A stretch of 64,000 nucleotides of DNA from a virus (lineage: Duplodnaviria > Caudoviricetes), in the IMG/VR virus record IMGVR_UViG_3300020036_009553, positions 1-64,000 of that record. One strand, 5' to 3'. The notes under the pieces were generated by a model that did not search any database, was not told where the DNA came from, and saw nothing but the letters and a program-made list of their open reading frames with translations. Positions 4,035 through 62,595 of the stretch are shown in pieces (the first letter of the stretch is position 1; each line of letters opens with the position of its first letter). Both the position numbers and the translations under genes were made by a program.

Positions 4035-4934
4035 ATGGCAAAATATGAATGGAGTGAGGTATTCACATCAATCGAAGGAGAGGGCCCCTACTCTGGCTGT
4101 CCTACAGCATATATTAGATTTGTAAAATGTAATTTTACGTGTAATGGGTTTAATAATCCCACAGGCGAAAATGTATCAACGATTCAAGCAATGGGGTTTA
4201 ATCCAAAAGACTATACAACATTAGCTGATATCCCTCCGATTACTCGTGGGTGCGATTCAATTTATTCATGGGATCCAAAGTTTTCTCATTTTTGGAAAAA
4301 GGGAGATGAAACAGAGTTAGGACAAGCATTAATTGAAACTCTCCCCCATAAATCTTTTGTTAATCCCTTTACGGGCCAACGAGTTATTTTATCATTAACT
4401 GGTGGCGAACCGACTCTGAGGGCAAAACAAATTCCAACGTTGATAAATTCGCCGTTGTTTCAACAGGTTAACCATTTGTTAATTGAAACTAATTGTGCTG
4501 TTCCATTACAATGGAGTTTTATTGGAGCGCTCAATGAATGGTTGGCTGTTGATCCAGCACGTAAGTTAACATGGAGCAACTCACCAAAGTTATCTGTATC
4601 TGGAGAAAAGTGGGAAGACGCAATTGTACCAAGTATTGCTTCAATGCAGCGAATGGTTACAGGGCTGCGGGATAAAAACCAAGTAGATCAATACTTTAAA
4701 TTTGTATGCGGTCCTACAGAAAAAGATTTTTTTGAAGTTAAGACCGCAATGCATGAGTATCATACCAAAGGGAATGTACCGTACACAACAGGAGTGTATA
4801 TCATGCCTGTGGCCTGCGTGGAGGATCAACAGCAAGAAATTTCTACCGCTGTGGCGTTAAAATGTATAGAAACTGGATATGTTTATTGTCACAGGGTTCA
4901 TTTATCGACGTTTGGGAATGCCATAGGAACTTAA
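4035..4934 (+). CDS. queE: QueE-like radical SAM enzyme (7-carboxy-7-deazaguanine synthase)
   Basis: EVFTSIEGEG, CNFTC...GCDS (CX3CX36C), LTGGEP, IETN, SPKL, R.H motifs. Confidence 0.8.
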   Translation: MAKYEWSEVFTSIEGEGPYSGCPTAYIRFVKCNFTCNGFNNPTGENVSTIQAMGFNPKDYTTLADIPPITRGCDSIYSWDPKFSHFWKKGDETELGQALIETLPHKSFVNPFTGQRVILSLTGGEPTLRAKQIPTLINSPLFQQVNHLLIETNCAVPLQWSFIGALNEWLAVDPARKLTWSNSPKLSVSGEKWEDAIVPSIASMQRMVTGLRDKNQVDQYFKFVCGPTEKDFFEVKTAMHEYHTKGNVPYTTGVYIMPVACVEDQQQEISTAVALKCIETGYVYCHRVHLSTFGNAIGT

Positions 4935-4936
4935 TA

Positions 4937-5185
4937 ATGGATTATATTGATTTTCAGCATGTAGTAAACATTAAACTATCCGATGATGAACTGACTGAAG
5001 CGAGAGCGTTCGTAAACAAGAGCCACACTGGAAGTAACCACATTCAAACCTCTGAGCAAGTATCTCCGGAATTAATGGATGCTCATTGGTCTATTAATGC
5101 TGGGCATATTATGGTCGTGCCATTACGTTTGTATTCAAATGGCAAATTAAAAATTATTAATGGGAGTGAAGATAATGACAACTAA
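4937..5185 (+). CDS. hypothetical protein
   Basis: ATG directly after the queE stop. Confidence 0.5.
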   Translation: MDYIDFQHVVNIKLSDDELTEARAFVNKSHTGSNHIQTSEQVSPELMDAHWSINAGHIMVVPLRLYSNGKLKIINGSEDNDN

Positions 5186-5417
5186 GTATCAAGTTAGTGT
5201 GATTATTACTGGCGGAACTGATAGTGGTAAAAACACGGTTACTCGTCTTATCCATAGATTGTTACAGGATAATTTGGTTAATGTGGTATCAGCTCCAGAA
5301 CTAACCTCGCCACATATAACAATTACTGATGAGGAATTGCTTCATTTGAAAGAGACCAAAGTAATCATATGGGAGCGAAACAGCGATACCCAACCACCCA
5401 GTAATAGGCAAAACTAA
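5175..5417 (+). CDS. small protein with Walker A-like motif
   Basis: ITGGTDSGKNT; too short for a complete kinase. Confidence 0.45.
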   Translation: MTTKYQVSVIITGGTDSGKNTVTRLIHRLLQDNLVNVVSAPELTSPHITITDEELLHLKETKVIIWERNSDTQPPSNRQN

Positions 5418-5458
5418 AAAATATTCTTATATATACTACGCAAAGGAGAATAACAATA

Positions 5459-5887
5459 ATGATGTATGAAAAAAAGGTAGTATATAGAGCTGGGGTAATT
5501 CCATATATTATTAACGGAGATGGTGTTCCAATTATGATGTTCATGAGACCATCTGATAGTGAATATGGTGGGGATTTGTTTCAACTAGCAAAAGGAAAAG
5601 TAGATGATGGAGAAACCTCTTTGGTAGCAGCATTGCGAGAGGCCAAAGAGGAATTAGGGCTGTTTATTGGGAATGTAATTTTTACTGAAGAGCTTGGTGT
5701 GTTCATGGGAAGAACCACTGTATTTCTAGCCAAAGTTAAGAAAAAAGACATGTTTGGTGAACCATCTTTTGAAACAAGCGATGTTAAGTGGATGTCATTA
5801 GATGAATTCATGGATGAAGGGCGGGATTTACATAAACCAGTTGTTCAAGCAGCAATGCGTCGGATTTGTGCCATTGAAAACATATAA
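5459..5887 (+). CDS. NUDIX hydrolase
   Basis: Nudix box GKVDDGETSLVAALREAKEELGL. Confidence 0.9.
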   Translation: MMYEKKVVYRAGVIPYIINGDGVPIMMFMRPSDSEYGGDLFQLAKGKVDDGETSLVAALREAKEELGLFIGNVIFTEELGVFMGRTTVFLAKVKKKDMFGEPSFETSDVKWMSLDEFMDEGRDLHKPVVQAAMRRICAIENI

Positions 5888-5890
5888 ATA
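5883..5890 (+). promoter_or_regulatory. T4-type late promoter TATAAATA (variants CATAAATA/AATAAATA at 4000, 6955, 8815, 34558; TATAAATA at 53566, 55212)
   Basis: Motif recurs just upstream of gene or tRNA starts; matches the T4 gp55 late promoter consensus. Confidence 0.6.
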
Positions 5891-5910
5891 CCTCTTTTGA
5901 GGAGAATTGT

Positions 5911-6939
5911 ATGTTTAAACGAGGACTTATTGTAGCATTAATGTTGGGCGTAGTAGGAACTGCATCTGCAGAAATTAATTGTGATCAGTTATCATCATTT
6001 CCACTGACTGTTATTTCGGGAGTTGCAGTTCCTGTTTGTGACACGGCTTGTCCAATGATTACCCCTCCACTGTGCACAGGATCATCAGGACCGTATCAAA
6101 ATATCTTGTTTTCTGCACTGACGGCAGGTAGTGATAGTACAGGATTGTCTGTTAACACAGCTGGGTATCAAGCAATTACCAGCAGCGATATTAATCCTAG
6201 TGATAGTACAGGATTGGCAAATGATGCTACCGTGTACACAGCAACAATTACTGTCGATGGAGTGGCTAAGTCTGTTTCTGTAACGGGATCAACCGCCCAA
6301 ACTTTTACCACACTGATGAACCAAATCAATACGGATCTCGGAGCATCAGCAACAATTGCTATCAACACAAATCGTCTCCGTGTAACATCTGCCACAACAG
6401 GAACCAGTTCAACTGTCAGTATTGCTGATACTGATTTGTTTAGTTCTCTCACTGGGTATGCTTCCCTAGCATCTGCTGTCGTCGGTACTGCTCCAGTATA
6501 CACAGCAACGATCAATGTAAATGGAACCAGCAAGGCAATTAGTATTGCAGGTGCATCTGCACAAACTTTCACAGCATTAGTGTCAGAGCTTAACACAGAT
6601 ATTGGTGCTCAAGGAACAGCGGTTCTTGATGTTCCAAATAAACAAATTAAAGTTCGGTCATTATCTACTGGTCCAACAGCCACTATTAATATTACTGCGG
6701 GAACTCTTCTTCCAGCATTGGCTAATTACACCAGTTTGTCGCCTGTGCAGGTTGGTGGAATACCAACTGTTACTCCTAAAAAGTCATCTAACATTGGAGA
6801 TTATACCAATGTAGTATGTACTAACATTGCCACATTTCCAAAAGTAACAAAGGGAGCAAACGTATATCCTAAATGCGTCCAAAAATGTCAACAAGTTCGT
6901 CCACCTAAGTGTGTTGATTATAATAGTGAATTAAACTAA
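5911..6939 (+). CDS. exported or virion-associated Thr/Ser-rich protein with two internal repeats
   Basis: N-terminal signal peptide; repeat VYTATIxVxG...AQTFTxL...NTDxG twice; Cys clusters at both ends. Confidence 0.65.
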   Translation: MFKRGLIVALMLGVVGTASAEINCDQLSSFPLTVISGVAVPVCDTACPMITPPLCTGSSGPYQNILFSALTAGSDSTGLSVNTAGYQAITSSDINPSDSTGLANDATVYTATITVDGVAKSVSVTGSTAQTFTTLMNQINTDLGASATIAINTNRLRVTSATTGTSSTVSIADTDLFSSLTGYASLASAVVGTAPVYTATINVNGTSKAISIAGASAQTFTALVSELNTDIGAQGTAVLDVPNKQIKVRSLSTGPTATINITAGTLLPALANYTSLSPVQVGGIPTVTPKKSSNIGDYTNVVCTNIATFPKVTKGANVYPKCVQKCQQVRPPKCVDYNSELN

Positions 6940-6992
6940 TAATTCACATATTATCATAAATAATCACTATTACACATTGAAGGAGAAAACCA

Positions 6993-7748
6993 ATGGCTGG
7001 ATGGAATTTAAATGAACTGCGAGCAATCGCTGGGTTACCGCTAAATGAACGATATGACGACGATGACGATGATGGATTGTCGAGGGCTGAGCGCGAGTTG
7101 GCCTCAAAAGCTGACAAAGAGTTAAAAGCAAAGGGAGTCAAAGTTCCTGACATTGATCCTGATAAGGATATTAGTAAGGCAGCCAATCGTTCAAAAACAA
7201 AAAAAGATGCTGCTGATACTACTGCCGATGAAGAAGAACCAGCTGCGACAGCAAAGGAAGAACCAGCTGCGACAGCAAAGGAAGAACCAGCTGCTAAAAA
7301 AGAAGAACCAGCTGCTAAAAAAGAAGAACCAACTGTGGCGAAAAAGCGTGGTAGGTCTGCTGATCCAAATAGTAACATGTCTGTTGGTCGCGAATGGATC
7401 AAGAATCACCCTGATGCTTCGCTCGGTCAATGGAAGGATCACTGTGCAGCAACAGGTTTGATGGTACCTGCACAAGCGAGTGCATTCTTTTACCGTCACT
7501 CAGTAAAAGCAACTCGTAATCCAAAGACAAAAGGACAGACATCTGAGAGCGTATGGATGTTTGCTCACCCAATGCAACCATCATTTTACTTGCATGAAAA
7601 TGCTGGAATGGGAACATATGAATGGGTAAATGAGTCGGAAGCCAAGATGCCGGTTGTGTTAGAAACCATTGAGGATGCGAATCGGTTAGTCCAATTCTTA
7701 TCTGACTGGAAATCAATATCTGTTAAAGTACAAAAAGTCGGTATATAA
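6993..7748 (+). CDS. charged low-complexity protein, possibly an internal head protein
   Basis: LNELRAIAGLPLNE N-terminus, KEEPAA repeats, late-promoter motif upstream. Confidence 0.6.
   Translation: MAGWNLNELRAIAGLPLNERYDDDDDDGLSRAERELASKADKELKAKGVKVPDIDPDKDISKAANRSKTKKDAADTTADEEEPAATAKEEPAATAKEEPAAKKEEPAAKKEEPTVAKKRGRSADPNSNMSVGREWIKNHPDASLGQWKDHCAATGLMVPAQASAFFYRHSVKATRNPKTKGQTSESVWMFAHPMQPSFYLHENAGMGTYEWVNESEAKMPVVLETIEDANRLVQFLSDWKSISVKVQKVGI
7232..7331 (+). repeat. coding tandem repeat (24- and 21-bp units, EEPAATAK/EEPAAKK)
   Basis: GAAGAACCAGCTGC repeated. Confidence 0.85.
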
Positions 7749-7763
7749 GTTTGTTTTTATAGA

Positions 7764-7800
7764 GAATAAAGAAGGCCCCCGTTGCCTTCTTTATTCATTT
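7764..7800 (+). terminator. intrinsic terminator-like hairpin
   Basis: GAATAAAGAAGGC/GCCTTCTTTATTC inverted repeat. Confidence 0.6.
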
Positions 7801-7891
7801 CTCGTATAATTATACTATACAGAGGCCTATTAGTTCACCCCTCTCAAAATATTCTGCACTACAATATAATAATTAAAACAATGGAGGGAAA

Positions 7892-8812
7892 ATGAGTTAT
7901 ATTTCTAGTATGTTTCTGAGCGATATCTCAGTGGTGGATCACGCATATATCGACGATCGTGGTAATATTGTTGGAGGATCATTCAATCCAACTTTCCTAG
8001 TAACAGGCGAATTGGATCCAGTTGAGCAAGTGGTTGTTGACTTTTCTTCTGTCAAAAAACAAATTAAACAAATTATTGATGACAAAGAAACAGGGTTTGA
8101 TCATAAACTGTGGTTTATTGAAAAATATTCCAATGGTGATTGGTATTTTGATAAATTCGATAAAATTGCTACACGAATAACGATTATCACCCCAACTACG
8201 GAAATCCGTATTCCACGGAACGCAGTCACAATTATCTCCGAGAGAGATATATTTGATTATTCTATTGCTTCTATTGGTGTAGCACTAGAGCGAAAGGTTC
8301 AAGCAGAACTAAGAGTACTTCACCCACACGCGAACATTACGGTCAAATGCATCAATAATCAAAATTGTCATTATCCAACACAATATATACAATCAACATT
8401 GTTTAGATATACTCACGGACTGAAGGATTCTACTTCGTGGGGTTGCCAAAATGTTGCACACGGACACTTATCATATATCCAAGCAATTGCAGACGGCCCA
8501 AATAATGAACAGCAATTAACTGCTTTGGAATCAATAGGACGGGAGCTAGATGATACAGTGTTCATAATGGAGGATAATATTTCCCATGCATCTCAACAGA
8601 CCGTGACGGTAGATTATACCACGGGGAGAGGCCAATTTCTTGTGACATACCGTAAAGATGCATACAAGTTATCGATTCTTGAAACTGAGACAACTGTTGA
8701 GCATCTTGTTGAGTTTATTGCTGCAAAATATGGAGCCGAATTAAAAGAACTTGGAGTTATTAAGTTGTTTGTGTCTGAAGGATTATCAAAAGGTGCGTTT
8801 GTTACTCTTTAA
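7892..8812 (+). CDS. queD: QueD-like 6-carboxytetrahydropterin synthase (long two-domain type)
   Basis: VDFSSVKK..DHKLW, YTHGLK, CQNVAHGH and ETTVEH motifs; queE nearby. Confidence 0.7.
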   Translation: MSYISSMFLSDISVVDHAYIDDRGNIVGGSFNPTFLVTGELDPVEQVVVDFSSVKKQIKQIIDDKETGFDHKLWFIEKYSNGDWYFDKFDKIATRITIITPTTEIRIPRNAVTIISERDIFDYSIASIGVALERKVQAELRVLHPHANITVKCINNQNCHYPTQYIQSTLFRYTHGLKDSTSWGCQNVAHGHLSYIQAIADGPNNEQQLTALESIGRELDDTVFIMEDNISHASQQTVTVDYTTGRGQFLVTYRKDAYKLSILETETTVEHLVEFIAAKYGAELKELGVIKLFVSEGLSKGAFVTL

Positions 8813-10515: not shown

Positions 10516-11343
10516 ATGAGCACTACCACCATACCTGATTCGCTCGTAGAACACAAGACAATATTAGATCCATTGTTGGGTAGTACCAATACTAAGTATG
10601 GGACAATATTGGAATTCACGGACCTTGCTTTGATACGATCTAAGTTGTCTAAGTTAGATACGGCAACTTCGTCAAAGCCCAAGCGCATCAACTCAGGGAA
10701 ACACGTATTTTCTTTGGTTCCGAGAAGGATCAACTACTTGCTTAATAACCACACTTGTGTACGATGTGGAATCACACTTTCGCTGGCAATGGTGTACAAA
10801 CCCATCAATACCGACGACAAAACCCCCAACCACATTCATTTGTGTGGTATTCGGGATGGAAAAATCATCCCCCTGACAATCGATCATGTGTTACCTCATA
10901 GTTTGGGAGGTAAATATGCCGATAGCAACTTTCAGACACTGTGTGGACATTGTAACACGGCAAAAGGCAATATGATGTCACCATCGGAAATTGCTCTTGT
11001 CCGGGCTGATCCAACCAAACATACCAGAAGTACTGTTAGTGTGGATTCAATGTTGGCTGCTGTTGCGTCAATGGAGAATTATGCACAGATAAGCACAGAT
11101 GGGGTAAGCATCAAAAAAGCAATTACGGAAGCAAAAATTGATTTTATATCAGCAACAGCTGCTGTACAAGGCAAAACACCTCCTGCTGTTCATACGCGTT
11201 GTCCTGTTAGTAAGGTTTCTCCTGACCGCGAGTGGATTATGTGGTGGAAATCTCGTCCATCTGTAATAAAATTGCTTTGGTATTGGCTTAATGGGAAGTC
11301 CAAGCCGAGAACCACGCCAAAAGTGGCATTTAATAATCGTTGA
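10516..11343 (+). CDS. HNH endonuclease domain protein
   Basis: CVRCG...TIDHVLPHSLGG...NFQTLCGHCNTAKG. Confidence 0.8.
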   Translation: MSTTTIPDSLVEHKTILDPLLGSTNTKYGTILEFTDLALIRSKLSKLDTATSSKPKRINSGKHVFSLVPRRINYLLNNHTCVRCGITLSLAMVYKPINTDDKTPNHIHLCGIRDGKIIPLTIDHVLPHSLGGKYADSNFQTLCGHCNTAKGNMMSPSEIALVRADPTKHTRSTVSVDSMLAAVASMENYAQISTDGVSIKKAITEAKIDFISATAAVQGKTPPAVHTRCPVSKVSPDREWIMWWKSRPSVIKLLWYWLNGKSKPRTTPKVAFNNR

Positions 11344-11368
11344 CTTTTAAATTAAACCCATATATAAT
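11340..11368 (+). promoter_or_regulatory. sigma70-type promoter upstream of the PEP-CTERM pair
   Basis: TTGACT-N17-TATAAT. Confidence 0.75.
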
Positions 11369-11444
11369 TGTAATCATCGGATGTAGATAAAACTATCTAT
11401 ATTTCCCCGATAATAACTCTTTTTTCGCATAAGGACATTTTGAA

Positions 11445-11714
11445 ATGAAAAAAATTCTTGTTATGGCTTCTCTGCTGGCTGCTCTCCTGAGCACATCTCC
11501 CGTGATGGCACAAGTTTCCCCACCTGCTGACGATGTTGATCCAAACGTCACTGTTGCCGAGCTCTTGCCACCAGATTCCGACTTTGGAAATTTTGGCCGC
11601 GGTTTTTCGGTGTTTTCCGTTTCGGTACCGGATGAAGTACCCACTCCTGGCACTCTCGCGCTTCTTGCCATTGGGCTGGTTGGAATGGGTGCATTTGCTC
11701 GCCGTTCCGTTTAA
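11445..11714 (+). CDS. PEP-CTERM sorting-domain protein (VPTP variant)
   Basis: Signal peptide; C-terminal VPTPGTLALLAIGLVGMGAFARR. Confidence 0.85.
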   Translation: MKKILVMASLLAALLSTSPVMAQVSPPADDVDPNVTVAELLPPDSDFGNFGRGFSVFSVSVPDEVPTPGTLALLAIGLVGMGAFARRSV

Positions 11715-11732
11715 TTTTAAAAAGGAACTATT

Positions 11733-12500
11733 ATGAATAAAATGTTTTCAAAATTTGCTGGTATGTCCGCAATCGCCGCCCTGGCTCTTGCTGCTCCTGT
11801 GGCGATGGCTGATACGGTTACGTTGAACCTCCAGAATCTTGCTTTTACTACCACAGCATACGTCAGTTCAAACAGTGGGGCGTCATTTACGAATACGTAT
11901 GTGTCATTCCTCAATGGGAACGTAACCAACCCTGTTGGTCCGCTGGCTACCTCGGTTTTTAACCCCCTTCCTGCCGACGTGGATGTGTTTTGTATCCAAT
12001 TGCTGCAGAGTATTGGTGTCCCTAGTTCAAATACCTTCAACTTCGGTACTTTGGCTGCTTCTGGTTCGCCTGATGGTCCTCCTGGCCCACTTTCCGCGCT
12101 TCAACAAAAACAGATCCTGAACATGTACAGCAATGCGGATGGTAATCAATATATCAATGCGACTAACGCCGCCGCGTTCCAACTCGCTCTCTGGGAAATT
12201 ACCTTTGATGGTAACGGTGTTCTCAATGAAGATGCCGGAGTTTTTCAGGTTAAGCCTTTGAGCGCTGTCGTCGAGGCAGCATTGGATGGGTATCTTGCTA
12301 GCACGGTGTCTGATCTCAACAACAATGATCCTGACCTGACCATGTATGCGTTTCAAAATGGCAGGGTTCAAGACTTTGTAATTGATCTCGAGCGGTTGCC
12401 AGGCGGTGGTGATGAAGATCTGCCAGAACCTGGTTCCATGGCGTTGCTCGGTCTTGGGCTGGTTGGTCTAGCTGGTACTCGACGTCGTTTCGTCAAGTAA
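11733..12500 (+). CDS. PEP-CTERM sorting-domain protein
   Basis: Signal peptide; FCIQL and AAFQLALWEI motifs; C-terminal LPEPGSMALLGLGLVGLAGTRRR. Confidence 0.9.
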   Translation: MNKMFSKFAGMSAIAALALAAPVAMADTVTLNLQNLAFTTTAYVSSNSGASFTNTYVSFLNGNVTNPVGPLATSVFNPLPADVDVFCIQLLQSIGVPSSNTFNFGTLAASGSPDGPPGPLSALQQKQILNMYSNADGNQYINATNAAAFQLALWEITFDGNGVLNEDAGVFQVKPLSAVVEAALDGYLASTVSDLNNNDPDLTMYAFQNGRVQDFVIDLERLPGGGDEDLPEPGSMALLGLGLVGLAGTRRRFVK

Positions 12501-12654
12501 TTGAATCTGAAAATTTCATAGGAGTGGAATGACCGAACCGTAAATTGATCGAAAAGTAAACGTTCCTATCTGTAAGAATATACCAGTAGGATTGCCAATA
12601 ATACGTTAGTATGATGCTGGGCAGATCATCATTTACCACACGGCTATGAAAATC

Positions 12655-12681
12655 AAAAGAGGAACCGTGTGTTCCTCTTTT
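12655..12681 (+). terminator. intrinsic terminator
   Basis: AAAAGAGGAAC-cgtgt-GTTCCTCTTTT. Confidence 0.7.
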
Positions 12682-12704
12682 GTTTACCTATAAAGAATAA
12701 TAAT

Positions 12705-13077: not shown

Positions 13078-13362
13078 ATGCGATATGAATACAAAAATGA
13101 CTATGAATATGAGCCCCCCAATATTATGGATTATGCATCGGCGTGGGATCGTATTATTGCTGGCGCAATCACCATTATTTTAATGATGTTAGGGGCAGTT
13201 GCTGGTTACACAGGTGGATACCTATTAGCAGACAAGTTTGGTACATTATTTGCAATATTATTATCGTGTACGTTTGTCGCTATTGTATATCTACGGATGA
13301 TGTGCTTGTGCGAATGGGTAGACCGCCCCGAAGAAGACGTTTTGTACATCCCGTACAAATAA
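13078..13362 (+). CDS. small membrane protein
   Basis: GGAGA RBS; two hydrophobic segments. Confidence 0.55.
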   Translation: MRYEYKNDYEYEPPNIMDYASAWDRIIAGAITIILMMLGAVAGYTGGYLLADKFGTLFAILLSCTFVAIVYLRMMCLCEWVDRPEEDVLYIPYK

Positions 13363-13725: not shown

Positions 13726-14895
13726 ATGATGACTAATACTGATTACGACGACATCGACGGCGATGATGAAGGTCAAGAAGGTACCGACGTTGAAACCGAA
13801 CTGTTTGGTGCAAAAGAAGTCAGGTGGTATCAGGTCGCGGCTCGTAACGGGGTCGAAATGGCGTTGGAATCAAAGCCGAATGCTCGTATTTTGTTGGTTC
13901 AACCGACTGGGTCTGGCAAGACTGTGTCGTCAGGTCTTATCTTTTCTTCCCAACGAGTCCGCAAGGCGCTGAATGTCCCAGCGGATAGGAAGTTGCGGTT
14001 GTTGTTCATCGCTCACAAACACCGTCTGCTGACTCAAGCGGAAGAAGCGTATGCATCTGCTGAAAACGTGGAGTTCATTCCACAAAGCGCATTCTCTCCA
14101 CTCTCTCCTGACCTGCTCGCTGCTGGCTGGGACGTCACATGTATTGATGAAGCTCACCATGAGGCCATGACTACGATCCAATATCATCTGGATCAACTGG
14201 GCAATAAGCCAATCATTGGGCTAACCGCTACTCCTGATCGTGCTGATGGGTGCTTGATCAAATTTGACATCATCATTGATCCGATTTCTCGGGAACAAGC
14301 GGTGGAAGAAGGATGGTTGGCCCCAACTCGTATTCATACCTTCTTGGATGTGCCGACTATCGACAAAACCGAGATGCTGACAAATCTGCTCAATGATTAT
14401 GCTCATCAGATGGGACAAACGATGATATTCGTGAAGACCAAGCGAGAGATCGTCAATGTGGTGGAAGTATTGGTCAATCTTGGGTATGATGCTGAAGGTA
14501 TCTTGTCCCAATCAGAAAGGGAGTTGAATATCTTGTTGGATCAGTTCAGTGAAGGGGCTGTGCAGTTTATCGTGAACTGCAACAAGATCAACGAAGGGGT
14601 GGACGTGAAAGGGTGTACTGATGTGTTACTTGGCCGCCAATTTGGTTCATATGCTCAACTTAACCAAGTTATTGGACGGGCGGCTCGTCCTGACTCTCCG
14701 TGTAATGTCTGGGAATTGATTAATCCGTTGTCAGCACGTAATCTGGACACCACCGTTGTTGTTGGAACACCTGAGTTCCACAGATTGGTTGGAAAGGAAG
14801 GTGGCCAATGGGTTGAGCGTCAATTCAATTATGTGCAGCACCGCACAAATAAACAACTTGGGGTGGCCACTGGAGTTCGGGCAAGCCACAGGTAA
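13726..14895 (+). CDS. superfamily 2 (DExH) helicase
   Basis: PTGSGKT, DEAHH, LTATP, EGVD and QVIGRAAR motifs. Confidence 0.9.
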   Translation: MMTNTDYDDIDGDDEGQEGTDVETELFGAKEVRWYQVAARNGVEMALESKPNARILLVQPTGSGKTVSSGLIFSSQRVRKALNVPADRKLRLLFIAHKHRLLTQAEEAYASAENVEFIPQSAFSPLSPDLLAAGWDVTCIDEAHHEAMTTIQYHLDQLGNKPIIGLTATPDRADGCLIKFDIIIDPISREQAVEEGWLAPTRIHTFLDVPTIDKTEMLTNLLNDYAHQMGQTMIFVKTKREIVNVVEVLVNLGYDAEGILSQSERELNILLDQFSEGAVQFIVNCNKINEGVDVKGCTDVLLGRQFGSYAQLNQVIGRAARPDSPCNVWELINPLSARNLDTTVVVGTPEFHRLVGKEGGQWVERQFNYVQHRTNKQLGVATGVRASHR

Positions 14896-39089: not shown

Positions 39090-41348
39090 ATGATCACGAA
39101 TCAATTCCAAGCTCCTGTTGAACGTTCCGGTGTTGCGGCTGAAAGTGTATTTCACATCAATGCCAGTGCAAAGGCATTTGAGATCCTTTCTTCCACATTG
39201 TACTCGGACAAAATTCAAGCGATCGTTCGGGAGCTAGCGTGCAATGCCTACGATGCTCACGTCGCTGCAGGAAATCAAGATACGCCGATTGAGATCCATT
39301 TGCCATCACCATTGGATGCCACATTTTACGTTAAGGATTTCGGCACGGGGTTATCCCGCGAACAAGTTGTTGGGCATACTGATGCCACGGGCCGTTTTAT
39401 TCCTGGGATCTATCAGACGTTTTTTGATAGCGACAAGACTGACAGTAATAATTTTATTGGTGCTCTCGGGCTTGGGTCAAAGTCACCATTTTCGTACACC
39501 AGTCAATTTACTGTGGAATCGCGGTTCAATGGAACATGCTACGTCTTCCTGGCGTTTAAGAATGAGGAAGGATTGCCATCAATTGTTGAAATCTCTCATG
39601 CTCCAACAATTGACCCTAATGGTCTGACAGTATCGTTGTCGGTTCGTTCGGAGGACATTGGTAAGTTTTTTAACGCTGCAAAGTTGGCGTTGATGTATTT
39701 CAATCCAGCTCCAACGGTTCTCGGGCGGTGGGATTTTGGATCTGCTCACAGGTTGGTTCACACCGTGTCAGGCACAAATTGGAAGATTCGTGAGGCGGAT
39801 TATTATGCCAATATGATTGGCCCTCGTGTTGTGCAGGGGTTTGTATCATATCCAGTTCTGACCCACATGTTATCTCAACATGTTGCTTTATCTGTAGGCG
39901 CCGCCGGATTGTTGAGCACAGATGTTGATTTGTACGTACCAATTGGAGAGATTGATGTTGCTCCCTCTCGTGAAGCGTTGTCTTATAACAAGAAAACATG
40001 CGTTAGTTTGATTACAGCTCTGGAACAGGCCGCCGATGAGATGCGGGCAGGGTTTCAGAGTTCATTCGACAAGTGCGCCACCAGGTGGGAGATGCTTTGT
40101 CTTCTCGAGAAGCTGACGAAGAGTTCTTCGCAGAAGTTCAATGCAGTATTTGCTTCAATGCATAAAAGCATCCCATTCACCTGGAACGGGGATGAAATTG
40201 CGGATGTAGTATCCATGGACCTGAGTGAGTGCTATCTCATGGGCATCCAGCGTGTATCACGATCAGTTAATCGTCGTGGTATTATGGCCCGCAAAGTGAA
40301 CATGTCGGACGTATGGGGGAAGGGTCGGGGAAGTTCAGATACTGCTGAGCTGCCATGTACTAATCCAAGCAAGATTAAGTTTTTGGTGGAGCGGACTGGG
40401 AAGGTGCTCGGGCCTGTGTTCTTTCAAGCATACACAGATACCTTTGGAGCTACGGAAGATCATCTGTTGTATGTGATTCGGTCCATTCCTGGTTGTGGGT
40501 ATTCTGCGGCTGAAACAAAGATGATTCTCGAGCAATTTGGGAATCCTCCCGTTGAGTATGCTGATGAGGTGATGGCAAAGGTACAAGTCGTTAAAAAACA
40601 ATACGTTAAGAAAGATAAAGAAGTTAAAATGTTTTGGACGGGGTTCCGTACCAAGCGCGTTCGTGGGAGGATGGTTGAAAATAATTCATACTCCCGTCTC
40701 ACATGGGACAATGCTACTTTTGATCCTTCGGAAGGTGGGTATTACGTAGTTGTTGATCGTTTTACGCCAATGAACGGTGATCAGCCAGTAGCCAACCTCA
40801 AACAATTCATTGGGGCTGCCCAGACGTTACATTATATCCCAGAAGGGGTTACGATATGGGGGCTAACGAAGAATGATGCTCGTGAAATCGAAGACGATGA
40901 GCAATGGATTAATGTGGTTACCGACACAGCTCTCCAATTCGAAACTGATAATGAACAAGGAGAGTTGACGAACAAGGTCAATGTAACAACCACACTGAAT
41001 CAAGTTCATCGTACCATGGGATGGGCATATTCGCGCATTGTCGGTGTGTGGACGCCTTCTATATCCCAAACATGTTGCGATGGAGAATTTAAGACATATA
41101 TTGAAAAAATCTATCAACTCATTCAAACTGCTGATGAGCCATGTGAAATAAAAGCAATCCGGTGCTTGGCTACTCAGTTTGGTGATTGTCTTCAGCAGAC
41201 GCCTGAGGCGATAGCCGCTATCACTTCTCAATGGGAAGCCATCCTCAAGAAATACCCAATGTTACAATTTATTGATTGTTCATACACTCATTCATCCGAG
41301 TTAGTTGCAATTATACTCGAATATATTGGGTTGGTGGAACGGAAGTAG
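39090..41348 (+). CDS. rIIA: rIIA-like protein (GHKL ATPase N-terminus)
   Basis: LYSDKIQAIVRELACNAYDAH, DFGTGL, GALGLGSKSPFSY, PSREALSY. Confidence 0.9.
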   Translation: MITNQFQAPVERSGVAAESVFHINASAKAFEILSSTLYSDKIQAIVRELACNAYDAHVAAGNQDTPIEIHLPSPLDATFYVKDFGTGLSREQVVGHTDATGRFIPGIYQTFFDSDKTDSNNFIGALGLGSKSPFSYTSQFTVESRFNGTCYVFLAFKNEEGLPSIVEISHAPTIDPNGLTVSLSVRSEDIGKFFNAAKLALMYFNPAPTVLGRWDFGSAHRLVHTVSGTNWKIREADYYANMIGPRVVQGFVSYPVLTHMLSQHVALSVGAAGLLSTDVDLYVPIGEIDVAPSREALSYNKKTCVSLITALEQAADEMRAGFQSSFDKCATRWEMLCLLEKLTKSSSQKFNAVFASMHKSIPFTWNGDEIADVVSMDLSECYLMGIQRVSRSVNRRGIMARKVNMSDVWGKGRGSSDTAELPCTNPSKIKFLVERTGKVLGPVFFQAYTDTFGATEDHLLYVIRSIPGCGYSAAETKMILEQFGNPPVEYADEVMAKVQVVKKQYVKKDKEVKMFWTGFRTKRVRGRMVENNSYSRLTWDNATFDPSEGGYYVVVDRFTPMNGDQPVANLKQFIGAAQTLHYIPEGVTIWGLTKNDAREIEDDEQWINVVTDTALQFETDNEQGELTNKVNVTTTLNQVHRTMGWAYSRIVGVWTPSISQTCCDGEFKTYIEKIYQLIQTADEPCEIKAIRCLATQFGDCLQQTPEAIAAITSQWEAILKKYPMLQFIDCSYTHSSELVAIILEYIGLVERK

Positions 41349-41411
41349 TTGACATTTGTAAAACACGTGGGTATAATGTTGTTATAGTATTCCACCACAA
41401 AGGAAAAAACG

Positions 41412-42368
41412 ATGATTTACATCAAAACACAAACAGGATTTGCAGGGCTGGCGGATGGTAAGCCATTTACGGTAGCGGACACACATCCGTGCTTTGGTGA
41501 AATCGAGCAAGCGATTCGTAATAACAATGAGCAATTAGTTCATCAGTTGATTAATCGATCAACCATGCTGGCTACTAACCCACACGTTGTGCACCAGCGA
41601 GTAGAAGTTGATCCAGTGGCAGGGGTGATCTATGTGGATGGTCTCCCGATTGAGAACACCCTCGTCAGCAGAGTAATTTCAATGGCGTTGGAAGGGTATC
41701 AAATTGAATCAATGGTTGCATTCATTGACAATTTGTACCAGAATCCATCCAAGAAAACAATCGATCGTATCTATGCTTGGTTGGAAGCTGGTGAAATGCC
41801 GATTACCGACGATGGGCATTTCATTGCTTATAAGCGAGTTAACAACGACCTGACCTCATTCTACGATAACACGACGAAACATGTCGTCGGTGAAGTGACA
41901 GCAATGGAACGATATCGTTGCGACGACCGAACAGAAGAGACGTGCTCCACTGGGCTGCACTTTTGCTCTTATGGATATCTCTCAAAATATTATTCGGGCA
42001 TGGGCCGAATTTTGGTGCTCAAAATCAATCCAGCGGACGTTGTTGCTATTCCCGACGATTATGGAACATCAAAAGGTCGGGCTTGTAAGTATTTGGTCGT
42101 TGGGGAATTGACCATTGAACAAACATCTGAAGTTGAAACTGTTAATGTTCTGTCAATGCCTGTAATGATTATTGATGAGCAAGACACTATTCCCGAGGAA
42201 CCAACTACCAGTCCTACATATGAACAAGGATATGTGAGGGGATATGCTGTCGCTCGCCAGCAGAAGTTTATCCCTGACATGCCGGATGATGCCAACAGTG
42301 ATTATATTGAAGGGCATTCAGCAGGGTATAGTGACGGCATCTACCACAAAAAACGGATGTATCGGTAG
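41412..42368 (+). CDS. rIIB: rIIB-like protein
   Basis: NPS, ITDDGHFIAYK, CSTGLHF, INPADVVAIPDDY..KGRACKY; follows rIIA. Confidence 0.9.
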   Translation: MIYIKTQTGFAGLADGKPFTVADTHPCFGEIEQAIRNNNEQLVHQLINRSTMLATNPHVVHQRVEVDPVAGVIYVDGLPIENTLVSRVISMALEGYQIESMVAFIDNLYQNPSKKTIDRIYAWLEAGEMPITDDGHFIAYKRVNNDLTSFYDNTTKHVVGEVTAMERYRCDDRTEETCSTGLHFCSYGYLSKYYSGMGRILVLKINPADVVAIPDDYGTSKGRACKYLVVGELTIEQTSEVETVNVLSMPVMIIDEQDTIPEEPTTSPTYEQGYVRGYAVARQQKFIPDMPDDANSDYIEGHSAGYSDGIYHKKRMYR

Positions 42369-48911: not shown

Positions 48912-49374
48912 GTTGACTTTGTGAGCCATTTGAGATATAATGGCTCCATCAACTGGAGAACAACATGACCACCACCCCTGTTATTGTTACTCGTGACTCT
49001 CTCACCAAAATGATCACCAACCCGAACGCTGAATACGTTAAACGCGTCCTTGGCAAGGCATTGGTGGCAATCTTCAAGAGGCAGACTGAAGCAGAACAAA
49101 CCACCGACTCCACTCAAAACGATAATGGGGTGGGGTTTGCGGGATGTGATGCACGTTCTGGGTCGCTCACAGCAAAGTTCTTCATGAAACACAACACTCT
49201 TGCTGACTGGCAGGTCGCTGCGTGGACACGCGTTGGAAAGAACGGATATGCCCGAATCTGCAAGTATCACGCTCAACTGAATGAAATTGCAACATCTCGT
49301 CCACAACGGACAGCAAGTCTGTAATTGTTGACTTTGTGAGCCATTTGAGATATAATGGCTCCATCAACTGGAGA
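48912..49374 (+). repeat. identical 48-bp promoter repeats (48912-48959, 49327-49374) flanking one gene
   Basis: GTTGACTTTGTGAGCCATTTGAGATATAATGGCTCCATCAACTGGAGA twice. Confidence 0.9.
48965..49324 (+). CDS. hypothetical phage protein
   Basis: RQTEAEQ...NGVGFAGCDA...KYHAQL; own promoter. Confidence 0.65.
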   Translation: MTTTPVIVTRDSLTKMITNPNAEYVKRVLGKALVAIFKRQTEAEQTTDSTQNDNGVGFAGCDARSGSLTAKFFMKHNTLADWQVAAWTRVGKNGYARICKYHAQLNEIATSRPQRTASL

Positions 49375-57238: not shown

Positions 57239-57303
57239 GTTGACATTATCGCCGATACGTTGTATAATGATCTTCATCAGCTGACAACACGAGGAGAAAG
57301 AAA

Positions 57304-62322: not shown

Positions 62323-62400
62323 CAACTGTTGACAAGGCAAGGACGATGTTGTATAATCGTCCTTGTCGATTGACAAACAACATTCACAAAGGAAACATCA

Positions 62401-62595
62401 ATGAAAACATCCTTCAACTTCAACCTGTTCGTCTTTTGGGTAATTACGCTTTTGTTCGGTTTGTCGGCGGCAAATGCATCGGTGACCGTCGTGAACGAAG
62501 TTCCTGAGCCATCCACGATGTTCATGGTCGTTCTTGCCGTTGCGATCATGTTCGTCTGCGACTACCTTGGCCGTCGTTTCCATCGTCGATCGTAA
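62401..62595 (+). CDS. minimal PEP-CTERM protein
   Basis: Signal peptide, 7 residues, then VPEPST + transmembrane helix + RRFHRR. Confidence 0.75.
   Translation: MKTSFNFNLFVFWVITLLFGLSAANASVTVVNEVPEPSTMFMVVLAVAIMFVCDYLGRRFHRRS

Follow-up and report, generated by a model that had tools for sequence, protein, structure and literature searches.

Bacterial PEP-CTERM proteins are exported by the Sec pathway and have been tied to exosortases by genomics and genetics, and the sorting system to which they belong is widespread and poorly understood. Here we describe genes of this kind in a phage: a two-gene operon, ORF A and ORF B, and a separate third gene, ORF C, all on the IMG/VR virus record IMGVR_UViG_3300020036_009553 (128,415 bp, CheckV completeness 57%). 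The window that we analyzed, whose numbering is used below unless another contig is named, is the first 64 kb of that record (64,000 nucleotides). Like the substrates of the bacterial PEP-CTERM/exosortase systems (EpsH, XrtA), the encoded proteins have a signal peptide and, at the C-terminal end, a Pro-Glu-Pro-type motif, a transmembrane helix and an Arg cluster; they also resemble those substrates in their small size and in the tandem arrangement of several genes. The setting differs: here the genes lie in a virulent-looking jumbo phage, behind promoters of the phage’s early type, and no exosortase was found on the element.

One product of the operon, ORF B, also resembles a second known kind of protein, the thioester domain (TED) of bacterial adhesins. 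A 2015 survey reported no TEDs outside Gram-positive bacteria (Walden et al. 2015, PMC4450167), and in the literature that we searched TED adhesins were described only from Gram-positive bacteria and their plasmids. The predicted fold of ORF B is similar to that of the class I TEDs (CpTIE-TED 5A0G, SfbI-TED 5A0L, PnTIE-TED 5A0N, Cpa 2XI9/4C0Z, FNE 5DCQ; Z 8.9–12.2), and it shares with them the central helix with Q..xW and the distal Gln in phi-Q-zeta-phi-phi. In contrast, sequence identity is only 8–13%, ORF B has no stalk domains, LPXTG or sortase anchor but carries the domain directly on a PEP-CTERM tail, and it is encoded by a phage whose host is probably Gram-negative.

Efficient mating by the conjugative plasmid pLS20 in liquid depends on the plasmid’s TED adhesin, TIE(pLS20), whose thioester Cys is essential (PMC8092201). 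Among mobile elements this adhesin offers the nearest functional parallel, in that the element brings its own TED adhesin and apparently controls the contacts of its cell. TIE(pLS20), however, is a class II TED with CnaB stalks, 778 aa long, from a plasmid of a Gram-positive host, whereas the protein described here is minimal and encoded by a phage. ORF B is also like PepA (NF033554), a Zoogloea protein linked to flocculation in the account cited by PMC12642866 (its ref. 37), in length, signal peptide, tail and presumed sorting route.

No paper in the literature that we searched joins “thioester domain” and “PEP-CTERM”, and phage-encoded exosortase substrates are not described there; an earlier note on this DNA, made from the letters alone, had likewise known of no characterized phage function of this sort. 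One preprint reports a mobile element of Dehalococcoides with a PEP-CTERM domain. The present case brings two known kinds together in a phage, the PEP-CTERM substrate and the thioester domain; what it adds is a jumbo T4-like lineage where such cargo occurs repeatedly, the early-promoter cassette architecture and a third member that has almost no passenger. Our reading, which we rate at slightly better than even, is that the operon is an accessory (moron) cassette through which the host exosortase sorts a covalent TED adhesin onto the surface of the infected cell.

PEP-CTERM genes on the phage record

ORF A (11445–11714, + strand) encodes 89 aa and follows a ribosome-binding site, AAGGA, at 11431–11435. 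Its signal peptide comprises residues 1–22, and its tail (residues 64–89, nt 11634–11711) consists of VPTPGT, a transmembrane helix and RR; the passenger between them is about 40 aa long, acidic, and contains neither Lys nor Cys. ORF B (11733–12500, + strand; AAGGA at 11722–11726) encodes 255 aa, with a signal peptide (residues 1–26), a TED-like passenger (about 27–225) and a sorting signal at 12417–12497 on the same strand, made up of LPEPGS, the helix MALLGLGLVGLAG and TRRRFVK. Signal peptides and cleavage sites were judged by eye from the translations: in ORF A, KK and a hydrophobic core are followed by a site between VMA and Q, and in ORF B the site is between AMA and D. At both C-termini the PEP-type motif leads into a hydrophobic helix and then an Arg cluster at the extreme end. 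The earlier note had described two adjacent genes with signal peptides and VPTP/LPEP-transmembrane-Arg tails, and both open reading frames are present as it described them.

That note had also proposed a search with the PEP-CTERM hidden Markov model (HMM), and we ran it on this phage. TIGR02595 (cut-off 16 bits) matched ORF A marginally at 16.3 bits and ORF B at 21.0 bits. With PF07589 (cut-off 20.7 bits), ORF A fell just under at 19.8 bits and ORF B scored 28.6 bits, and a six-frame search of the record found the ORF B tail at 25.2 bits.

The count of two genes was correct for the adjacent pair but not for the phage, as a third gene at 62401–62595 had been overlooked. This third cassette (62329–62595, + strand) consists of a promoter, TTGACA-N17-TATAAT (62329–62357), a ribosome-binding site, and ORF C (+ strand), in whose 64 aa a passenger of about 8 aa separates a signal peptide from the tail VPEPST-transmembrane helix-RRFHRR. 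ORF C scored 17.5 bits with TIGR02595 in the six-frame search and 16.7 bits in hmmscan, the latter over model positions 1–18 only (cut-off 16). With this borderline score, ORF C is probably a PEP-CTERM gene. Its GC content at third codon positions (0.63) is the highest in the phage.

Short HMMs such as TIGR02595 also match control genomes, and chance was therefore tested separately by simulation. A regular expression for PEP-type tails found three open reading frames in the actual genome, compared to a mean of 0.04 and a maximum of 1 in 100 second-order Markov simulations. Because three real open reading frames stand against a simulated mean of 0.04, we concluded that the PEP-CTERM tails are far above chance.

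The earlier note had seen no exosortase in the window, and a search with PF09721 found none in the whole 128,415-bp record, which is 57% complete. Nor was one found in the related phage records G001 (complete), G003 and G008. Since the phage has no exosortase, PEP-CTERM processing would require the host enzyme.

The role of ORF A and ORF C may be that of minimal cargo or that of substrates competing for exosortase. Taken further, the second option makes them decoys that occupy the host exosortase and lower host surface-protein sorting or slime assembly. ORF C, which is nearly all signal peptide and sorting tail, would suit this role, as would ORF A with its poorly structured passenger and its want of a homologue. 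Small size is not unusual, however: PEP-CTERM proteins of 67–106 aa are common in bacteria, and by language-model features ORF A resembles these small bacterial proteins. A decoy would also have no need of the well-folded, conserved domain of ORF B. We consider the decoy explanation improbable.

A thioester-domain fold in ORF B

The TED-like domain of ORF B spans residues 27–225 (nt 11811–12407, + strand). An AlphaFold2 model of the protein, built from a 125-sequence alignment, reached a predicted local distance difference test score (pLDDT) of 87.4 and a predicted template modeling score (pTM) of 0.79. Foldseek compared this model with the PDB and returned Gram-positive adhesin TEDs at probability 1.0 (5a0g, 5dcq, 4c0z, 5a0n and others; 5a0g at E 1e-4). 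In an all-against-all VIA-align search of 48,161 chains, the top eight matches were all TEDs, with Z of 8.9–12.2 over 150–170 aligned residues, and the next match had Z 4.7. The TED fold, made up of a beta-barrel subdomain and a subdomain of three helices, is thus backed by two independent structure searches, and an Atlas structure search with ORF B likewise lists TED clusters. The earlier note had recognized the PEP-CTERM identity but had missed this fold of the 255-aa protein, which is its most informative feature.

Three residues formed the sole invariant columns in the alignment of 125 relatives: C87 (codon 11991–11993, in FCIQ), W154 (12192–12194, in the helix motif FQLALWEIT) and Q213 (12369–12371, in VQDFV), all on the + strand; A148 and Q150 were nearly invariant. 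C87 is the only Cys in ORF B; in the model this residue lies on a beta strand, and W154 is helical. Published TED motifs are [YFL]C-phi-zeta, TQxx-phi-W (in a helix) and phi-Q-zeta-phi-phi, and full conservation across TEDs is confined to the thioester Cys and Gln (Walden et al. 2015, PMC4450167). The counterparts in ORF B are FCIQ with C87, FQLALW with Q150 and W154, and VQDFV with Q213, respectively, so that Cys87 and Gln213 are the candidate thioester residues. They lie 126 residues apart, and the corresponding Cys and Gln are separated by 129 residues in CpTIE and by 152 in SfbI (Walden et al. 2015, PMC4450167). The alternative thioester Gln, Q150, has a spacing of 63 and fits CpTIE far worse.

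The Pfam TED model PF08341 has a single candidate in the phage genome, and it lies inside ORF B (nt 12120–12215). Across the family the model gave weak but consistent matches, hitting 96 of the 125 relatives at E ≤ 1 (best E 3.7e-7). When ten relatives were scanned singly, the seven matches shown had 14–20 bits, below the gathering score, and covered the same region. A sequence-profile search of the PDB with ORF B found no TED. The assignment rests on fold, motifs and weak Pfam matches, not on a curated model, and we place ORF B on a distant branch of the TEDs, as a compact and class-I-like domain joined directly to a PEP-CTERM tail, with a predicted thioester bond.

Kinship with PepA was tried as another explanation of ORF B and rejected. 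The PepA model NF033554 scored 18.7 bits on ORF B (cut-off 80), and hhalign of the ORF B family with six true PepA proteins aligned only the 30-column tail, the passengers being unrelated. The Cys/Trp/Gln signature is also absent from the PepA proteins. The earlier note had named Zoogloea as an example of bacteria in which PEP-CTERM proteins are linked to floc formation; a link to Zoogloea PepA does not hold at the protein level, where the sorting tail alone aligns.

Promoter and transcription unit

The operon is headed by the promoter TTGACT-N17-TATAAT (11340–11368, + strand), which has 11 of 12 consensus matches. Its −35 hexamer TTGACT (11340–11345) contains the TGA stop (11341–11343) of the upstream HNH endonuclease gene (10516–11343, + strand). 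We searched the whole 128-kb record for the pattern TTGACN-N16-18-TAnAAT and found it 33 times on the + strand and six times on the − strand; one copy immediately precedes ORF C, at 62329. The promoter named in the earlier note is thus present, but it is not a host-type feature peculiar to the operon: about 30 other genes of the phage share its class, the phage’s own sigma-70-type early promoters, the early timing being suggested by promoter type. Because the class is phage-wide, the operon is built like the other early-type single cassettes of this phage.

Copies of the promoter stand mostly immediately 5′ of small genes (for example at 41349, 46320, 53287, 57240, 58632 and 62993), and the copies at 48913 and 49328 share an identical spacer, as do those at 57240 and 58632.

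Downstream of ORF B lies a 12-bp hairpin with T-rich flanks (12654–12682). The hairpin rule scored it on the − strand, and on the + strand the stem ends CTCTTTTG and is followed by TTT. It is probably the end of the transcription unit.

Phage context of the operon

Matches to PHROG place the record among the T4-superfamily jumbo phages. Nearly all genes are on the + strand. In addition to the HNH endonuclease gene that precedes the operon, PHROG identified a helicase gene downstream of it (13726–14895), rIIA (39090–41348), rIIB (41412–42368) and a NinI-type phosphatase gene. The second half of the record encodes UvsX, a 2,716-aa baseplate-wedge-like protein and radical SAM enzymes, and the closest cultured relatives of the UvsX protein are those of jumbo phages of Ralstonia, Stenotrophomonas and Xanthomonas (44–46% identity).

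Among the other genes of the window are a QueE-like radical SAM gene and QueD-like genes (4035–8812), which point to a phage pathway for the 7-deazaguanine type of DNA modification. A 94-aa open reading frame with two predicted membrane helices (13078–13362) lies between the operon and the helicase gene.

ORF A, ORF B and ORF C rank in the 94th–99th percentile of GC among the genes of the phage. This rank fits a cargo that was acquired horizontally and then kept. Sequence identical to parts of the operon and its flanks occurs in wastewater, freshwater, faecal and activated-sludge contigs from four studies. These public contigs are 150–680 nt long and give weak support, as none spans an operon junction by at least 31 nt on both sides.

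The same two observations, GC above the phage mean and no examined public contig reaching at least 31 nt across both sides of a junction, are what would be expected if bacterial DNA had been wrongly joined to the phage contig. We regard such a chimera or host contamination as very improbable. Phage genes on the same strand flank the operon for tens of kb on each side, its promoter is of the phage’s own class with a −35 box that contains the stop of the upstream phage gene, and the third PEP-CTERM gene lies 50 kb away within the array of promoter cassettes. Moreover, a complete relative with terminal repeats, of 350 kb, also has PEP-CTERM genes. The operon is phage-borne, as the earlier note had taken it to be.

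PEP-CTERM genes in related phages

Relatives of the phage were located through the neighboring helicase, which identified nine IMG/VR records at 41–70% identity. The helicase and the two genes that follow it are syntenic in all nine, whereas the slot preceding the helicase is variable. PEP-CTERM genes were found in two of the nine records, G001 and G008.

Record G001 is a complete genome of 350,089 bp with direct terminal repeats, and it has other genes in the slot before the helicase. Its two adjacent PEP-CTERM genes (L097:904–2433 and L099:1653–2495) are flanked by NAMPT-like and NAD-kinase-like genes, and the pair sits within the NAD-metabolism gene group of this jumbo phage. One of the two belongs to the ORF B (TED) family (E 2e-14 against ORF B), and the second to the MHFG family NF038119 (227 bits, cut-off 100). 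Record G008 (292 kb) has an MHFG-family gene as well (168 bits, cut-off 100). In the G008 protein (L098:634–1566), domain and tail are separated by a long proline-rich spacer of (TP)n and (PPPPPYV)n that resembles a stalk. The MHFG family is distinct from ORF A, ORF B and ORF C and does not occur in the window; it was found in one of 201 genomes sampled from the order of G010, an Alcaligenaceae metagenome-assembled genome (MAG). These results show that a jumbo T4-like lineage repeatedly carries exosortase-type cargo, of different families and at different positions.

Recent, chance pick-up from a host, with genes that the phage does not use and is losing, would account for the high GC relative to the phage, for the patchy occurrence among relatives and for the other genes that fill the HNH-helicase slot in the closest relative. 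Against this stand the intact reading frames, the phage-type promoters and good ribosome-binding sites, and the invariant family residues that ORF B retains. The same kind of gene also recurs in related phages at other positions and from different families. We give this explanation little credence.

Two further, putatively viral IMG/VR contigs came from a looser pattern search. Strict patterns had yielded no IMG/VR relative of ORF B, and the looser pattern gave two tail-only matches on contigs of 18.7 and 38 kb with higher GC (L120 and L121). These encode one or two tandem PEP-CTERM proteins whose passengers are unrelated (L120:4667–6081, L121:5392–6087). A search of 50,697 GenBank phage records gave no relatives of either ORF B or the MHFG protein.

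Distribution of the ORF B family

The close clade of ORF B comprises P0002–P0005, at 39–52% identity, on contigs of up to 103 kb. The wider family has 3,027 cluster representatives at E ≤ 1e-3, of which 487 remain at the stricter E ≤ 1e-10, and it is present in soil, sediment and freshwater metagenomes. Relatives were found in MAGs of Alcaligenaceae, other Betaproteobacteria, Methylomonas, Alphaproteobacteria, Bryobacterales, Phycisphaerae and Planctomycetota, and the neighbors of ORF B in the Atlas are mainly Pseudomonadota. An exosortase is encoded in nine of ten bacterial genomes that have ORF B relatives.

This association bears on an explanation in which no exosortase is involved: the tail would be an inner-membrane anchor, and the domain would stay in the periplasm to block superinfection or to bind peptidoglycan or parts of incoming phage. 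It would thus act like small early membrane proteins of T4, such as Imm and Sp. An early-type promoter in a T4-like phage is in line with this, none of the four phage records searched has an exosortase, and the tail by itself amounts to a transmembrane helix and a basic stop-transfer cluster. A plain anchor, however, would make the full PEP-motif signature superfluous, and that signature is kept in three genes here and in three more in two relatives; bacterial ORF B relatives, moreover, accompany exosortase in nine of ten genomes. We judge exosortase-free anchoring to be unlikely.

Discussion

The earlier note had proposed that the phage passes its own proteins through the host exosortase and so remodels the cell surface or floc, and our results support that proposal in part. 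Under the reading that we favor, in which a host exosortase sorts a covalent adhesin, the operon would be transcribed from one of the many sigma-70-type early promoters of the phage. The products of ORF A and ORF B would be exported by Sec and retained in the inner membrane through their PEP-CTERM tails. The host exosortase, invoked because the phage has none, would then cut the tail and hand the protein outward. There, a buried thioester between Cys87 and Gln213 of ORF B could react with an amine on its target and bind it covalently, as happens with the TED adhesins of Gram-positive bacteria. The infected cell would probably end up with an altered surface, which could tether it to slime, floc or neighboring host cells or cover a receptor.

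Several observations weigh against this reading. The trait is variable, with no match in seven of the nine related records, many of which are fragments. Among the proteins of 48–156 aa that were searched, a 99% variant is the sole homologue of ORF A at E ≤ 0.01, and the score of ORF C is borderline and its match partial. The TED model PF08341 reaches only 13.8 bits on ORF B, below its cut-off of 22. An exosortase in the host is an assumption. Lastly, we know of no experiment beyond genetics on the action of exosortase on its substrates, even in bacteria.

A broader proposal can be put forward tentatively, and we would place it well short of even. According to this proposal, large lytic phages of floc- or biofilm-forming Gram-negative bacteria display a covalent “harpoon” adhesin early in infection via the host exosortase, either gluing the infected cell to slime or to susceptible neighbors or sealing their own receptor. 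Viruses would in that case have an active part in how wastewater and freshwater communities aggregate, and the adhesin would be a viral counterpart of the thioester adhesin of pLS20.

Exosortase substrates supplied by a phage constitute a compact, portable test system, with one promoter and two small genes. Such a system could be used to probe the effect of exosortase on its cargo, as well as TED chemistry in bacteria with a double membrane. If the favored reading is true, phages in activated sludge and lakes can alter the stickiness of the cells that they infect, with consequences for floc stability, for the spread of phages and for superinfection.

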